From the NCBI GenBank assembly GCA_043825735.1, contig JBDRRP010000022.1, positions 1 through 64,000 on the forward strand: 64,000 nucleotides of DNA, written 5' to 3'. Origin of the DNA: Pseudomonadota bacterium. GTDB taxonomy: Bacteria; Desulfobacterota; Desulfobacteria; Desulfobacterales; JBDRRP01. This document shows, piece by piece, positions 52,031 to 55,938 of the stretch. Each line of letters starts with the position of its first letter. Positions within the stretch are counted from its first letter, which is position 1. The position numbers and the translations under genes were made by a program. The notes under the pieces are model-generated. The model made no database searches. It was given only the letters and a program-made list of their open reading frames with translations, and was not told where the DNA came from.

Positions 52031-52163
52031 ACACGGACACACGGACGAACACGGACGGTCACGGACTGACACGGACAACAGCAAAACAGCCGATGCCCCA
52101 GGCCCCTGTCCGTGACCGTCCGTGTTCGTCCGTGTCAGTCCGTGTGTCCGTGCCAGTCCGTGT
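52031..52163 (+). repeat. CACGGAC-periodic inverted-repeat element, copy A
   Basis: 5x CACGGAC (52032-52076), 31-nt loop AACAGCAAAACAGCCGATGCCCCAGGCCCCT, 6x GTCCGTG (52108-52162); between convergent genes. Confidence 0.95.
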
Positions 52164-52176
52164 CACGCCTTGCCCT

Positions 52177-53469
52177 TCAACCCCACCGCATCAAAATGAA
52201 AAAATAGACCAGACTGCCGATCACCAACACGAGGCACGGTCGCCACAGGTATCGATAGACGGGCCCCAGCCCGGTGCCAAAATAGGTGTTTGACAGCAGC
52301 AGGCAAAGATGCAGCGGGGACAGCAGCACGCCGGCGAATCCGCCGGCAAGCCCCAGCATCATGTAGGCCAGCATATGATCGCTCGCCCCGGTGGCTGTGA
52401 CCAGAGAGATGATGATGGGAAAGGCGGCGCCGACGAAGGCGATGGTAATGCCTACCACCAGGCCCACGATGAAGGGCAGCACCACCGCGATGGCCACCAG
52501 CGGCACCTGCCAGCGCATCAGCTCGCCGTTGACGGCGCCCACCGCCCGGCTATCCAGCATCACCCCCTTGAAGATCAGAATGGCCGAGACCATGTAGACC
52601 ATGGCCAGCAGCTCCTTTTGAAACACGATCCGTCGAATCGTCGCCGGCTGGAGATCATTGACCCACCAGACCCAGCCGATGGCGCCAGCCAGGGCGATGA
52701 TGAGCCCCAACTCCTTGGCTACCGCGGCGCCCCGGCCCACCAGCAGCCCTTCCAACAGGTTTCCCAGCACGATGCCGGGCACGATGGCGATGAGCACCGG
52801 CGCCAGCTCCTTGAGAAACGGGATCACCAATGCACGTCGCGGCTGTTCCGCTATCGCCGCGCCATTGGCGGGCATCATCCGGCGCAGGTTCAGGTATCCG
52901 GCGACGGTGGCGACGACGGTGAGGGGAAAGAGCGTCAGCACAAAGGTCCACAGGTCAATGCCGGCCAGGGCCGTGGTGAGGAGCACCCCCGGGTAAAGTG
53001 GCCACCAGTATTCCCACAGATGGCGGAACCAGTAATTGATAAAGCTCAACTGGGGACCGGACAATCCGCTGCGTCCACCGATGTTCTTAACCATGGGTGC
53101 AGAGAAAATGGCCCCGCCGGGCATGGGCAGCAGCCCGATCAGGGCCGGAAAGATGACGATGTTGAGCCGGGGGCTTTTGATCAGCCCGGCGAACCGCTCC
53201 AGAAGGCGGCCCATCTGCCCTGTTTTTTCAAGGCTGTGGCTGAGCACCAGGATCAGTGACACCACCAGGGACAGAGACAGTGTCTTTGGATCCACCAGCG
53301 CGCTGCCGGCGGCGACGATGACGGCGCCGGGGGTCATGCCGAAGACCATCCCCAGCACCGCCGCTCCGATAACGAAGGCGTTGCCCAGCGAGAGCTTGAA
53401 ACGGATGAGGGTCAGGATGAGGCCGAAGATCAGAAAAACCCGCACAACGGCGGGGATGGTTTCCAGCAT
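52177..53469 (-). CDS. DUF401 family membrane protein
   Basis: PALIGLLPMPGGAIFSAPMV, INYWFRHLWEYWWPLYPG and SPLHLCL motifs. Confidence 0.88.
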   Translation of the reverse strand: MLETIPAVVRVFLIFGLILTLIRFKLSLGNAFVIGAAVLGMVFGMTPGAVIVAAGSALVDPKTLSLSLVVSLILVLSHSLEKTGQMGRLLERFAGLIKSPRLNIVIFPALIGLLPMPGGAIFSAPMVKNIGGRSGLSGPQLSFINYWFRHLWEYWWPLYPGVLLTTALAGIDLWTFVLTLFPLTVVATVAGYLNLRRMMPANGAAIAEQPRRALVIPFLKELAPVLIAIVPGIVLGNLLEGLLVGRGAAVAKELGLIIALAGAIGWVWWVNDLQPATIRRIVFQKELLAMVYMVSAILIFKGVMLDSRAVGAVNGELMRWQVPLVAIAVVLPFIVGLVVGITIAFVGAAFPIIISLVTATGASDHMLAYMMLGLAGGFAGVLLSPLHLCLLLSNTYFGTGLGPVYRYLWRPCLVLVIGSLVYFFILMRWG

Positions 53470-53531
53470 GGGGCGGCTCCCTTTACAAGCGGTGAGAAAA
53501 GCCCGTGTTTAGCAGAGCTTTGGCAATGAAA

Positions 53532-53567
53532 CAACAACGGCAACAACGGCAACAACGGCAACAACAA
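53532..53567 (+). repeat. CAACAACGG x3 + CAACAA microsatellite abutting copy B
   Basis: caacaacgg caacaacgg caacaacgg caacaacaa, read directly from the sequence. Confidence 0.8.
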
Positions 53568-53716
53568 CACGGACTGACACGGACGAACACGGACGGTCAC
53601 GGACAACTTCGCATCGTCAAAATATCGGCAGTTCTGTTTTTGTCCGTGTTCGTCCGTGCCGGTCCGTGTCAGTCCGTGTTCGTCCGTGTTCGTCCGTGTC
53701 AGTCCGTGTGTCCGTG
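53568..53716 (-). repeat. CACGGAC-periodic inverted-repeat element, copy B
   Basis: 4x CACGGAC, 37-nt loop, 8x GTCCGTG; overlaps the 3' end of the MBL gene and supplies its stop codon. Confidence 0.95.
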
Positions 53717-54613
53717 CCCCCCACCCCCCCGCCGGTACACCCCTCCCGCTTCAGCAACAACCCCCGCCGCCACCAACCGCTCCAGATGCTTTCCCATGAT
53801 GGCCCCTTCGGCATACCGGTAAAAATCGATGGGTTCCCTGGCCTTGCGGTAGACGATCCAGTGGTCAACGATCGCTTCAAGGGAGCGTGGTTCGGCTAAG
53901 GCATCGAGAAGCTTTTCCTCACGGGTGCCGATGACTCCGAGGTAGTCGTCCCACAGGGCGGGGGGGGCTTCGGTGAAAAGGCCCGTTTCGTGGCAGGTCA
54001 GCCATGCCCGGGCCGGAAGCTGCCGCAGGCGCTCAACCGATGCGATGGTCTCGGCGATGCTCGAATCCCGGTCGCCGTACCATGGACCGAAGGCGGTGAG
54101 GTCATAGTCGCCGAGGAAGAGCACGCCGGGTTCCCTGAAGTAGAAGCACAGGTGCCCGGGCGTGTGTCCCGGGGTGTGAAGGACGTCCACCGTGACCGAG
54201 GAGAGGCGGATGGTGTCGCCGCCGGTGAGATCGGGCCGCGGCCGTCTCGGGCGGAAATGAAACGCGTCGGTGACGATGGCCGCGAACTGCTCCCGGAAGG
54301 CGGGCTGCGTAATGCCGTAGGCATCGAGAAAGGCTTCCATGCCAGCCAGCGGAGGCGCATCGGCCGGATGAATCCGCACCGGCAGGTCCTCGAAGAGATC
54401 CAGGTGCATGAAATGGTCTTCGTGCCAGTGGCTGAGCCAGACTTCGCGGACCCCGTCTTTTTCCCGCAGACGCTTGAGACGATCCCGGTCGCCAGCCGGA
54501 TCGATGAGGATGCCGTCGCCCTCGATGTACACCGAGTGGCAGTGAGGGTATTTGCCCCGGTTGGGGCCGGGGATGAAGCGGACGGGGCCGAAGCGGGTTT
54601 CTTCCATTGTCAT
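53699..54613 (-). CDS. MBL-fold metallo-hydrolase
   Basis: SHWHEDH, TPGHTPGH, LGDYD and TCHE motifs. Confidence 0.92.
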   Translation of the reverse strand: MTMEETRFGPVRFIPGPNRGKYPHCHSVYIEGDGILIDPAGDRDRLKRLREKDGVREVWLSHWHEDHFMHLDLFEDLPVRIHPADAPPLAGMEAFLDAYGITQPAFREQFAAIVTDAFHFRPRRPRPDLTGGDTIRLSSVTVDVLHTPGHTPGHLCFYFREPGVLFLGDYDLTAFGPWYGDRDSSIAETIASVERLRQLPARAWLTCHETGLFTEAPPALWDDYLGVIGTREEKLLDALAEPRSLEAIVDHWIVYRKAREPIDFYRYAEGAIMGKHLERLVAAGVVAEAGGVYRRGGGGHGHTD

Positions 54614-54756
54614 ACCTTTTTGCCACTCTGTTTGAGGGCCACGTCCGAAGCCACCTTGTCGATGGCCGGTACGAAATCGTATTCCTGCATGTTTCCCGGC
54701 GCCAGGGTGCCATCGAAGTCGTAGGCGATGGCAAGGGGGATGCGTTTTCGGGTCAT
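54610..54756 (-). pseudogene. HAD-hydrolase remnant (48 aa), probably internally deleted; not in the ORF track
   Basis: MTRKRIPLAIAYDFDGTLAPGNMQEYDFVPAIDKVASDVALKQSGKKV*; HAD motif I (DFDGT), GGAGG RBS, ATGA coupling to the MBL gene. Confidence 0.75.
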
Positions 54757-54871
54757 CGGTGCGATGCCTCCCTGGGGTTCACCCATTAACGGCCGGTGAG
54801 CCGCTTATACAACAGCCTGCATTCATTTCTCATTAGCACAACACAGTGTCATCGGCGAAATGTTCACAGCG

Positions 54872-55630
54872 TTATGACCGCGATTTTCGCTGTGCGGTTC
54901 TCACCCGGTAGAGGCGCTCAGTGAAGCCGCCCTGATTTTCAAAGTCCTTGGCCTGGGCCGCCACCTGGCGGTCAAGGAGGTGGCCGCACAGGTTGATCAG
55001 CGAGAGGGCGGCGTTGGCGACGAGGACGGGGTAGGGGGCGGGGCGGTTTATAGTCGGTGGCGGTATGGTGGGTTGAGGCGTTTGGTAGGGCACACGGACC
55101 GACACGGACGAACACGGACGGTCACGGACCGGTGCCGGTGCATCGTGGGTTTTGCTGTTGTCCGTATCAGTCCGTGTCGGTCCGTGTCCGTCCGTGTGTC
55201 CGTGTTCGTCGGTGTGTCCATGCCTCCCGGGGCGCCTTCTCTCAGCCATAACCCAACACCGGATATCCTCCAAACTGGCACACCGCCTTTTCTTAAACCG
55301 CACCAGTGCCGGATGATCCGGCGCCCAAGGCGTCTCGCCGCGCTGCCGGAGATAGTCCTCGTAGTCCAGCCGCAGCTCTTCCAGACTGGCTCTTGCGACA
55401 TTTGTCAGCTTGATTTCGAATTTTTTCGACGTACCCGAGGCCTGGCTACCCTCGGCGATGTTCTGCACGCCGCTGCGGGCCGCCTGAACCATCTGGTCGT
55501 GGGTGCGGCTGAACCGGTCGATATAGCGGTCGCAGAACTGCACCGTCAGATCATAAATGAGCTGCGCGATCTGAAAGCTCTTCAGCCGGCGATAGCCGCC
55601 GTGTTTCGGGATGAGTTGTTCGGGTGCCAT
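54872..55630 (-). CDS. Four-helix-bundle (23S-IVP/Avd-like) protein with four-helix-bundle suffix domain and a repeat-encoded linker
   Basis: LIPKHGGYRRLKSFQ, RTHDQMVQAARSGVQNIAEGS and ARASLEELRLDYEDYLRQ; suffix ANAALSLIN..LLDRQ..F..GGFTERLY. Start ATG 55630 with AGGGA RBS. Confidence 0.9.
   Translation of the reverse strand: MAPEQLIPKHGGYRRLKSFQIAQLIYDLTVQFCDRYIDRFSRTHDQMVQAARSGVQNIAEGSQASGTSKKFEIKLTNVARASLEELRLDYEDYLRQRGETPWAPDHPALVRFKKRRCASLEDIRCWVMAERRRPGRHGHTDEHGHTDGHGPTRTDTDNSKTHDAPAPVRDRPCSSVSVRVPYQTPQPTIPPPTINRPAPYPVLVANAALSLINLCGHLLDRQVAAQAKDFENQGGFTERLYRVRTAQRKSRS
55093..55222 (-). repeat. CACGGAC-periodic inverted-repeat element, copy C (in-frame inside the four-helix-bundle gene)
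   Basis: 4x CACGGAC, 30-nt loop, 7x GTCCGTG-like units; encodes HGHTDEHGHTDGHGPTRTDTDNSKTHDAPAPVRDRPCSSVSVRV. Confidence 0.95.
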
Positions 55631-55800
55631 GTCGTTCCCTGAAATGTGTATGGTTGCCATTTGGGTATCGGGTTGAAGCCTGTTGATGTGCCCTGGCAGA
55701 GAGGATGGCATGAACGGCGGGAGGGAAGGCCGCTCGGGCTTGCGGGGAGGGATGATAGATGGCGATGACTGTAGCACATTGTAGACCAAAAAAACAACAA

Positions 55801-55938
55801 CACGGACACACGGACGGACACGGACGGACACGGACGGTCACGGACAGTGGCCGGTGCATCGTGGGTTTTGCAGTTGTCCGTGCCAGTCCGTGTCGGTCCG
55901 TGTTCGTCCGTGTGTCCGTGTGTCCGTGTTCATCCGTG
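55801..55938 (-). repeat. CACGGAC-periodic inverted-repeat element, copy D (upstream of the four-helix-bundle gene)
   Basis: 5x CACGGAC, 30-nt loop 26/30 identical to copy C, 7x GTCCGTG-like units. Confidence 0.95.

Follow-up and report, generated by a model that had tools for sequence, protein, structure and literature searches.

A four-helix-bundle gene (54872..55630, minus strand) and four hairpin arrays of the word CACGGAC lie together within the first 64,000 nucleotides (the window) of contig JBDRRP010000022.1 of a Pseudomonadota bacterium (GenBank assembly GCA_043825735.1). They are best read as a selfish or commensal gene-plus-word module, in which the gene product, a protein of 252 amino acids with the fold of the accessory protein Avd (P0001), would read its own word and copying would depend on factors acting in trans. 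This reading is tentative, at a probability of about 0.45. Intact and under selection, the gene belongs to the Avd/S23p fold family. In a loop that is dispensable to the protein lies an array of a clade-specific word in forward-loop-reverse order, and gene and word travel together between phyla. Solo arrays occur at gene junctions, mostly in genomes with such genes; their words are kept and their spacers drift. Arms lengthen by slippage, and direct copies recombine, with local duplication at this locus and a probable deletion in a same-genus genome (G001).

The gene and its product

The gene was recognized with the TIGR04258 and TIGR02436 hidden Markov models, and its start codon was selected by comparison with homologues. 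P0001 has an isoelectric point of 9.7. It passed the curated cut-off of TIGR04258 (four helix bundle suffix protein; 67.7 bits, cut-off 40) and that of TIGR02436 (33.1, cut-off 24). The score with PF05635 (23S_rRNA_IVP) was 31.5, short of the 33.8 cut-off owing to the separation of helix 4 from the bundle. An AlphaFold model (119 sequences; predicted local distance difference test score 81.5) placed helices at residues 17-36, 42-65 and 69-96, followed by two short inserted helices and, beyond a disordered linker (133-199), a helix at 200-233. Past the linker come helix 4 and then, at the C-terminus, a basic helix or tail. One of the four arrays, copy C, is translated as residues ~137-180, in the loop between helices 3 and 4.

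After re-alignment of 543 chains, Z scores of 14.0, 12.8 and 11.7 were obtained for XCC0516 (2GSC; root mean square deviation 2.3 over 111 residues), BT_0352 (2RLD) and Avd, respectively. An unrelated Bacillus protein also reached 12.1, and helical bundles may score high by chance. Foldseek alone gave no match to P0001 with an E value below 0.001, and a PDB sequence search gave none. The modelled fold is that of XCC0516 and Avd, and the sequence families concur; the same scores bear out the claim of an earlier, sequence-only reading of the window that one fold is common to Avd and the proteins of rRNA intervening sequences (IVS). Because the structural alignments continue past the linker to residues 225-231, the 'suffix domain' of TIGR04258 is helix 4 of the bundle plus the tail, with copy C translated as the loop before it. 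P0001 was unmatched in PADLOC, no promoter for its gene was found in a sigma-70 scan, and no catalytic family was detected in the protein, whose all-helical model goes with matches to four-helix-bundle families only.

Hairpin arrays at the locus

Copy A (52032-52162, plus strand) is a solo periodic hairpin of 5 CACGGAC units, a 31-nt loop and 6 GTCCGTG units. It is located 10 bp past the stop of a major facilitator superfamily (MFS) gene, between this gene and a convergent DUF401 gene. Copy B (53568-53716, minus strand), with 4 forward units, a 37-nt loop and 8 reverse units, is fused to the 3' end of a metallo-beta-lactamase-fold gene. Copy C (55093-55222, minus strand) lies in frame within the four-helix-bundle gene and has 4 forward units, a 30-nt loop and a reverse arm of 4 perfect and 3 imperfect units. 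Copy D (55801-55938, minus strand), with 5 forward units, a 30-nt loop and 6 perfect plus 1 imperfect reverse units, is found 170 bp upstream of the gene, beside the divergent typA promoter region. Copies C and D are 92% identical across 118 nt. Their loops agree at 26/30 positions, and those of A (plus strand) and D (minus strand) at 21/30.

The sequence-only reading had listed these four copies with their unit counts and loops, the 26/30 identity, the inversion of copy A relative to B, C and D, and the lack of such arrays elsewhere in the window. All of this was reproduced on recomputation, and no further doublet of the word was present in the 64 kb outside the four copies. Copy B also holds part of the loop core that it had ascribed to copies A, C and D, in the C/D orientation (AACTGC...CGATGC), which that reading had not mentioned.

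On both strands, the folding of all four copies was better than that of 200 dinucleotide shuffles (z -5.8 to -10.2; 0/200). Rfam gave no match at the gathering score in the window, only sub-threshold models of miRNA precursors, and two RNA runs matched only as short partial pieces. An assembly artefact is an unlikely origin of the arrays, since unitig depth was even over the region (26-32; not independent of the assembly, as the run is possibly its source) the breaks being confined to the repeats and the vicinity of typA. At 53522-53567, a short CAACAACGG 9-mer run adjoins the left end of copy B. The AAACAACAAC flank of copy D is the same as that beside copy B, and G001 retains its first AAACAAC only.

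Homologues and clade-specific words

Among the matches listed for the best 120 of 8000 scored proteins, most carried a translated hairpin in the linker; ranking by score favours such proteins. At 80 protein-fetched loci from many phyla, which include the cultured carriers Desulfatitalea alkaliphila and Chlorobium ferrooxidans, the linker was of the CACGGAC type in 40, of the TGGAC type in 32, of neither type (by threshold) in 6 and broken in 2. A linker word array was thus present in 72 of the 80 homologues, as CACGGAC with a 10-bp or TGGAC with a 9-bp period according to clade. Tandem GGAC preceded GTCC in 75 of the 75 linkers that contained both, out of 79 typed homologues (4 had one kind). 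Within 150 bp upstream of the gene, arms were forward at 23/79 and reverse at 2/79 loci; downstream arms were reverse at 10/79 and forward at 1/79, and the background far away was 0.1-0.2 arms per kb.

A tree was calculated by a quick method from 136 core columns of 114 proteins, after 5 of 119 loci had been dropped as broken or cut; 62 of its 111 branches are open. The TGGAC type formed one clade (Shimodaira-Hasegawa-like approximate likelihood ratio test 94; 37/39 rows), the CACGGAC type formed a grade that contains P0001, and the word type changes twice on the tree. Median dN/dS values were 0.21 for the core and 0.94 for the linker (58 non-independent pairs; linker alignment uncertain). By these ratios the protein core is kept by purifying selection and the loop peptide is not. 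Synonymous divergence was lower in some linkers than in the core (0.11 vs 0.60, 0.08 vs 0.50). One genome (G149) encodes a CACGGAC-type protein without a linker hairpin, yet with CACGGAC arrays on both flanks of the gene. The neighbours of the homologous genes were varied; a restriction-modification gene was the chosen adjacent open reading frame (ORF) at 12 of 76 loci.

Loci recovered with the suffix model only represent further clades with other words (ATAGGTC/GACCTAT, GTCNGAC-like and ATGGGA types). In the ATAGGTC/GACCTAT clade (L124, L131, L132, L134-L140, L142-L144), the genes are located directly upstream of one shared gene type, which we take to be type I-C cas4. This is consistent with the published note, in the available part of the source, that TIGR02436/PF05635-type proteins occur inside cas loci (PMC3936711). 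TIGR04258 proteins of another group (L007, L145, L147-L149) end in a four-cysteine, zinc-ribbon-like tail, with GTCNGAC-type words both ahead of it and in the loop. At L077 (G357, contig C173) the linker hairpin is duplicated with ~30 bp of unique flank just downstream of the gene; L228 is the same locus and not an independent case. Genome G357 contains 10 TIGR04258 matches and ~40 CACGGAC sites.

Distribution of the arrays

Ten CACGGAC arrays were found in the genome of the window (G000), five hairpins and five single arms. Four are at this locus, and the other six are on contigs C45, C72, C93 (two), C155 and C151. The sequence-only reading had proposed a cluster tied to the gene. Enrichment near the gene was confirmed, with 4/10 arrays and 4/5 full hairpins within 3 kb; a purely local system was not, given the six distant arrays and a gene near only 1 of at least 126 metagenome loci. 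Under even scatter, three non-genic arrays would come to lie this close to the gene (3 kb) with a probability of 6e-8 (computed for 3 of 8), but local duplication can also produce such clustering. Five of the six distant arrays are on contigs without a TIGR02436/TIGR04258 match, and the one on C151 has a plain TIGR02436 gene ~6 kb away. The five distant arrays examined each adjoin or overlap the 3' end of an ordinary gene; the one on C72 is a long pure single arm of 13 units. Taken singly, the word is not over-represented (855 occurrences; reversed control, 927). Its arrays are over-represented; the triple pattern in reverse gave 0 matches in G000.

At least 127 arrays with a period of 7-10 of any word, and with many words, were counted in this genome. 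Since, in addition, a periodic word was seen by eye beside each of 5 TIGR02436 and 7 GxxExxY matches, mostly a different one each time, CACGGAC is one word family among several. The commonest word was AACGATC (9-mers, 47 arrays). Contigs C25, C151, C36 and C58 carry dense multi-word arrays together with GxxExxY and four-helix-bundle genes. On C17 (47704-47847), a CGATCCCGATAG array with a 12-bp period is located directly upstream of a partial TIGR02436 match.

The word-first search returned the at least 126 metagenome loci mentioned above, 80 of them with flanks of up to 1.5 kb. Both orientations were present at 37 loci, with the forward one first in 34, and the sites were mostly junctions of ordinary genes. 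Solo-copy junctions include murD-type/ftsW, fmt/nusB and gspE/gspF-type pairs. On viral contigs, 68 loci with the word were found, 2 of them with both orientations and none (0/68) with the gene. A rule that single arms lie forward in sense after a stop codon fitted the four single arms examined and was rejected, as the metagenome loci showed both orientations about equally by eye.

Among 300 genomes of the same phylum, TIGR04258 was present in 41 and perfect CACGGAC triples in G149 only. TGGAC quadruples occurred in 16 of the 300, 14 of which were gene-positive. Arrays of TGGAC away from the gene were found in 5/41 gene-positive (three genera) versus 2/259 gene-negative genomes (hand-read).

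Composition of the arrays

Interior words between two perfect words were perfect in 56/57 cases in this genome and in 27/47 at homologous loci, whereas the spacers varied, with 0.75-1.2 bits at spacer positions. In a set of 35 hairpins, two counted twice (L077 and L228, one locus), facing spacers were exact complements in 11/61 in-register and 24/183 off-register pairs. Spacers were identical within one arm in 74/274 comparisons and between elements in 5.9%. The unit period is 10 (sometimes 8) bp here and 9 bp in the sister clade, 16 of 198 spacers give 8 bp, and arms have 2 to 17 units. The ideas that a 10-bp period places DNA sites on one face of the helix, and that about five units make up an arm, do not agree with these values. 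Adenine mutagenesis of the type found in diversity-generating retroelements (DGRs) was rejected as the source of spacer variety; other words keep their adenines on both strands.

For the linkers, the better-folding strand showed no preference (20:23 and 20:16). Folding compared with synonymous recodings gave median z values of -1.9 and -2.2 for linkers and -1.5 and -1.1 for core controls, without clear separation; for the P0001 gene itself, z was -1.9 for the linker versus -3.8 for the core. This recoding test has little power, since the amino acid sequence by itself determines most of the complementarity. Judged from these counts, the array pattern fits a word that is read, with arms lengthened by slippage, better than it fits a duplex under selection for unbroken pairing.

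Slippage also lies at the centre of an explanation in which nothing reads the word. Some hosts would amplify near-neutral 7-10-mer arrays by slippage and gene conversion, and the gene would have brought a seed in a tolerant loop. The many periodic arrays and words of this genome, the identity of spacers within arms and the long pure single arm on C72 suit this explanation, as do the intergenic heptamer arrays of Xanthomonas and Nostoc, for which the available part of the source names no partner (PMC4692102). It is nevertheless quite improbable. Words are kept while the adjoining spacers diversify, the forward-loop-reverse order is fixed (75/75 linkers and 34/37 metagenome loci), linkers diverge less than the core at synonymous sites in some pairs, and the same word is retained across phyla.

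Proposed mechanism

Avd is a basic pentameric barrel, and its five protomers together hold a single RNA stem-loop by bases that are flipped out, according to the available part of the source (10.1101/2023.10.23.563531). In the module proposed here, the basic protein, probably an Avd-like ring, would recognise the 7-base word one unit at a time, either on a single strand or on an imperfect hairpin. RNA is slightly favoured over DNA as the target because of the stem-loop bound by Avd. The protein may bind its own message through copy C, for autoregulation or protection, and may keep or help to seed solo copies. It would be a reader or chaperone and not an enzyme; copying to new junctions would depend on the host's recombination or repair, or else on a nuclease or reverse transcriptase supplied in trans. 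By resemblance, the GGA-containing arms may act as a CsrA sponge. We infer the binding, the oligomer state, the choice between RNA and DNA and the mobility. A wider claim is doubtful, namely that stand-alone Avd-fold proteins are sequence-specific readers defining a class of transposase-free mobile elements, whose lineages would each bind a word of their own, 7-10 bases long, bear an array of it in and around the gene, and drive the seeding of solo arrays at junctions, e.g. with the protein as chaperone of a trans-acting reverse transcriptase.

Several results weigh against the module as proposed. The co-variation of repeat unit and homologue that had been predicted from the window was found in part: flank and linker words agreed at 22 of the 24 loci that have both, and the word follows the clade. 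It rests on one independent contrast, however, and the genome-wide match of word to gene was not significant. CACGGAC triples away from the fetched locus occurred in 12/46 genomes with a CACGGAC-type gene vs 4/34 with a TGGAC-type gene (p 0.16), and TGGAC arrays showed no preference for gene type (13/46 vs 9/34). Ten genomes were discordant; a second gene of the matching type was present in 4 and not in 6 (assemblies of unknown completeness). Short arrays and no gene were found in G002 (85% complete), and G018, G048 and G104 have a CACGGAC-type gene and no perfect triple. Such triples were commoner in gene-bearing genomes (16/80, up to 78 matches) than in sampled phylum genomes (1/300), in a comparison that mixes phyla. 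Within 600 bp of the AACGATC arrays, no recurring small gene was found. Finally, A.C oppositions outnumbered G.U oppositions in linker stems read in the mRNA sense (172:76 and 138:72; 28:9 and 26:6 loci), an excess not expected of stems tuned to pair in mRNA; this bias may reflect codon composition, and the ratio was 23:18 in a mixed, mostly non-coding set of hairpins. Solo arrays are enriched in gene-bearing genomes, and the matching of word to gene is only partial.

Pairing of the arms is also what an IVS-like RNA cassette would depend on. The arms would form long double-stranded RNA that is cut by host RNase III, the insert would be tolerated at operon junctions, and the protein would be cargo or a processing helper, so that the exact word matters little. 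The family was first known from rRNA intervening sequences, as the available part of the source describes (10.1101/2024.02.27.582315). An upstream forward arm and a downstream reverse arm would enclose the gene in a stem, the predicted folds are strong, and solo copies lie at gene junctions. We regard such a cassette as unlikely, because cross-stem spacers are complementary in just 11/61 in-register pairs, little above the off-register value and below the identity within arms, and because A.C exceeds G.U in the mRNA sense. Single arms make up 5/10 arrays of the genome, the window contains no rRNA, and with a cut in copy C the gene would lose its own message.

Neighbouring genes and locus history

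On the minus strand, the order is copy D, 170 bp, the four-helix-bundle gene, a remnant of a haloacid dehalogenase (HAD) hydrolase gene, the metallo-beta-lactamase-fold gene ending in copy B, the DUF401 gene, and copy A facing the MFS gene end. The metallo-beta-lactamase-fold hydrolase gene (PF00753; 53699..54613, minus strand), between copy B and the four-helix-bundle gene, is a host gene outside the module. Its TGA stop is now inside copy B, and its product has 304 aa, compared with 293-295 aa from match start to stop in five homologues; copy B replaced the natural stop. The HAD remnant (54610..54757, minus strand) is a 5' part of ~33 codons, and its full-length relative in G002 scores as the PADLOC candidate PDC-S34. 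It probably came in with the four-helix-bundle gene. The junction of the two occurs elsewhere almost unchanged, as 54659-54945 is matched, at 2 differences, by a 287-bp contig from run X2 of another study.

Junctions without the element, for which the sequence-only reading had suggested a search, exist in G008, G001 and G002. In G008, a genome of another family, the metallo-hydrolase gene directly precedes DUF401, and the 40-bp spacer between them contains no array; of 15 other genomes that matched DUF401, 1 showed this adjacency. Copy B may therefore have been inserted at an old gene junction. In G001, DUF401 and typA are 98 bp apart, and one decayed hairpin fills the gap, with a loop that starts as in D and a 3' flank as in B (a D/B hybrid). 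The metallo-hydrolase gene (searched with the G000 gene as query), the HAD remnant and the four-helix-bundle gene were missing from this locus and not found elsewhere in G001, which also has no array after the MFS or the DUF401 gene (on separate contigs there). We infer that G001 lost the D-to-B block through recombination between D and B, the direction being taken from one outgroup. At two other CACGGAC junctions of G000, G002 lacked the array at both and G008 at one, and other repeats stood there in G001. No target-site duplication was visible at the empty sites, which have diverged.

In G001, the ddl-purE (L455) and radical SAM-nadE (L463) junctions thus carry other repeats in place of the CACGGAC arrays of G000, with 7- and 9-mer arrays at one and a GTAGGGGC...GCCCCTAC palindrome at the other. 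This palindrome is presumably REP-like (REP, repetitive extragenic palindromic). Such junctions look like shared landing sites.

Replacement of one repeat by another at these junctions would also be expected of a non-autonomous element at the DNA level. Single-stranded DNA hairpins or protein-binding sites would be moved in trans by a nuclease or recombinase, e.g. GxxExxY, and the gene would be a passenger colonised once. Seven GxxExxY genes with related periodic words in their flanks are present in the genome, linkers fold without strand preference, and genomes contain several words, both words being found away from the gene in 8/80 (p 0.03). GxxExxY matches were nevertheless seen at 0/194 word-fetched loci (profile from 7 sequences only), the diverged empty sites show no target-site duplication, and different words at the same loop in the TIGR04258 clades are hard to obtain from one colonisation. 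An origin of this kind is accordingly judged improbable.

Comparison with known systems

P0001 shares the fold and both NCBIfam cut-offs with the TIGR04258/TIGR02436/PF05635 family, and differs in that an insert, made up of two short helices and the translation of a DNA hairpin, separates helix 4. A literature search, covering little subscription content and no supplements, returned no paper that links the TIGR02436/TIGR04258 family to word arrays or describes an in-frame hairpin.

Intervening sequences are excised by RNase III. Those of 16S and 23S rRNA encode the same protein family (S23p/IVP ORF), and inverted arms may enclose the genes of the present family, with spacers mostly unpaired; that rRNA intervening sequences carry ORFs of the family is stated in the accessible text of one study (10.1101/2024.02.27.582315). 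In contrast, the present locus is outside rRNA (no Rfam match in the window; the neighbours are protein genes), its arms consist of periodic words whose spacers pair poorly, a further hairpin is inside the ORF, and many copies have no gene. With the DGR protein Avd, P0001 shares the fold (Z 11.7) at 13% identity. Reverse transcriptase matches were limited to C147, C51, C50, C69 and C24; none was found on this contig or others that bear a four-helix-bundle gene, nor among the Pfam matches of one chosen neighbour ORF per side at 76 homologous loci.

REP and REPIN elements pair with RAYT transposases; the repeat is a short tagged palindrome and the protein is of the HUH type. One gene, a local repeat cluster, dispersed intergenic copies and a word tied to the protein lineage are common to both cases. 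The likeness, which the sequence-only reading had drawn on, does not extend to an enzyme: the model of P0001 is all-helical, no Y1 HUH or other catalytic domain was found in it, and the repeat is a tandem 7-mer array that also lies inside the gene. With respect to miniature inverted-repeat transposable elements, the unit number of the arms varies, half of the arrays are single arms, and the empty sites are too diverged to display a duplication.

The heptamers GGGAATC and GGGGA(C/T)T of Xanthomonas and Nostoc had no general association with mobile elements, and the available text names no partner gene (Rehm et al. 2015, PMC4692102). They are likewise intergenic, variable in unit number, near or overlapping stop codons and often in convergent inverted pairs, as far as that text goes (PMC4692102). 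The array described here differs in its CACGGAC unit with a variable spacer, which has no G-tract for a quadruplex. As far as the sources were available, the protein family, the ORFs of rRNA intervening sequences, the presence in cas loci and the partner-less intergenic heptamer arrays are already in print. The locus works like a gene-plus-repeat module of the IVS or REP type, yet it fails membership of IVS, DGR and REP/RAYT.

Significance

To our knowledge, the very large TIGR02436/TIGR04258 family has no known function outside DGRs, and we know of no origin for the intergenic 7-10-mer arrays of bacteria. The words carried by the gene give a direct handle on the question of what a large orphan family may bind, and the sister-clade proteins with CACGGAC/10-bp and TGGAC/9-bp arrays offer a clean specificity swap. 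A nucleic-acid element is kept in frame within a protein loop across phyla. The arrays remodel host DNA, as in the replaced stop codon at this locus and the probable 2.3-kb deletion between direct copies in the congener. If true, a class of Avd-fold readers would account for the huge orphan TIGR02436/TIGR04258 family as well as for the 7-10-mer repeats that lie between genes in many bacteria.

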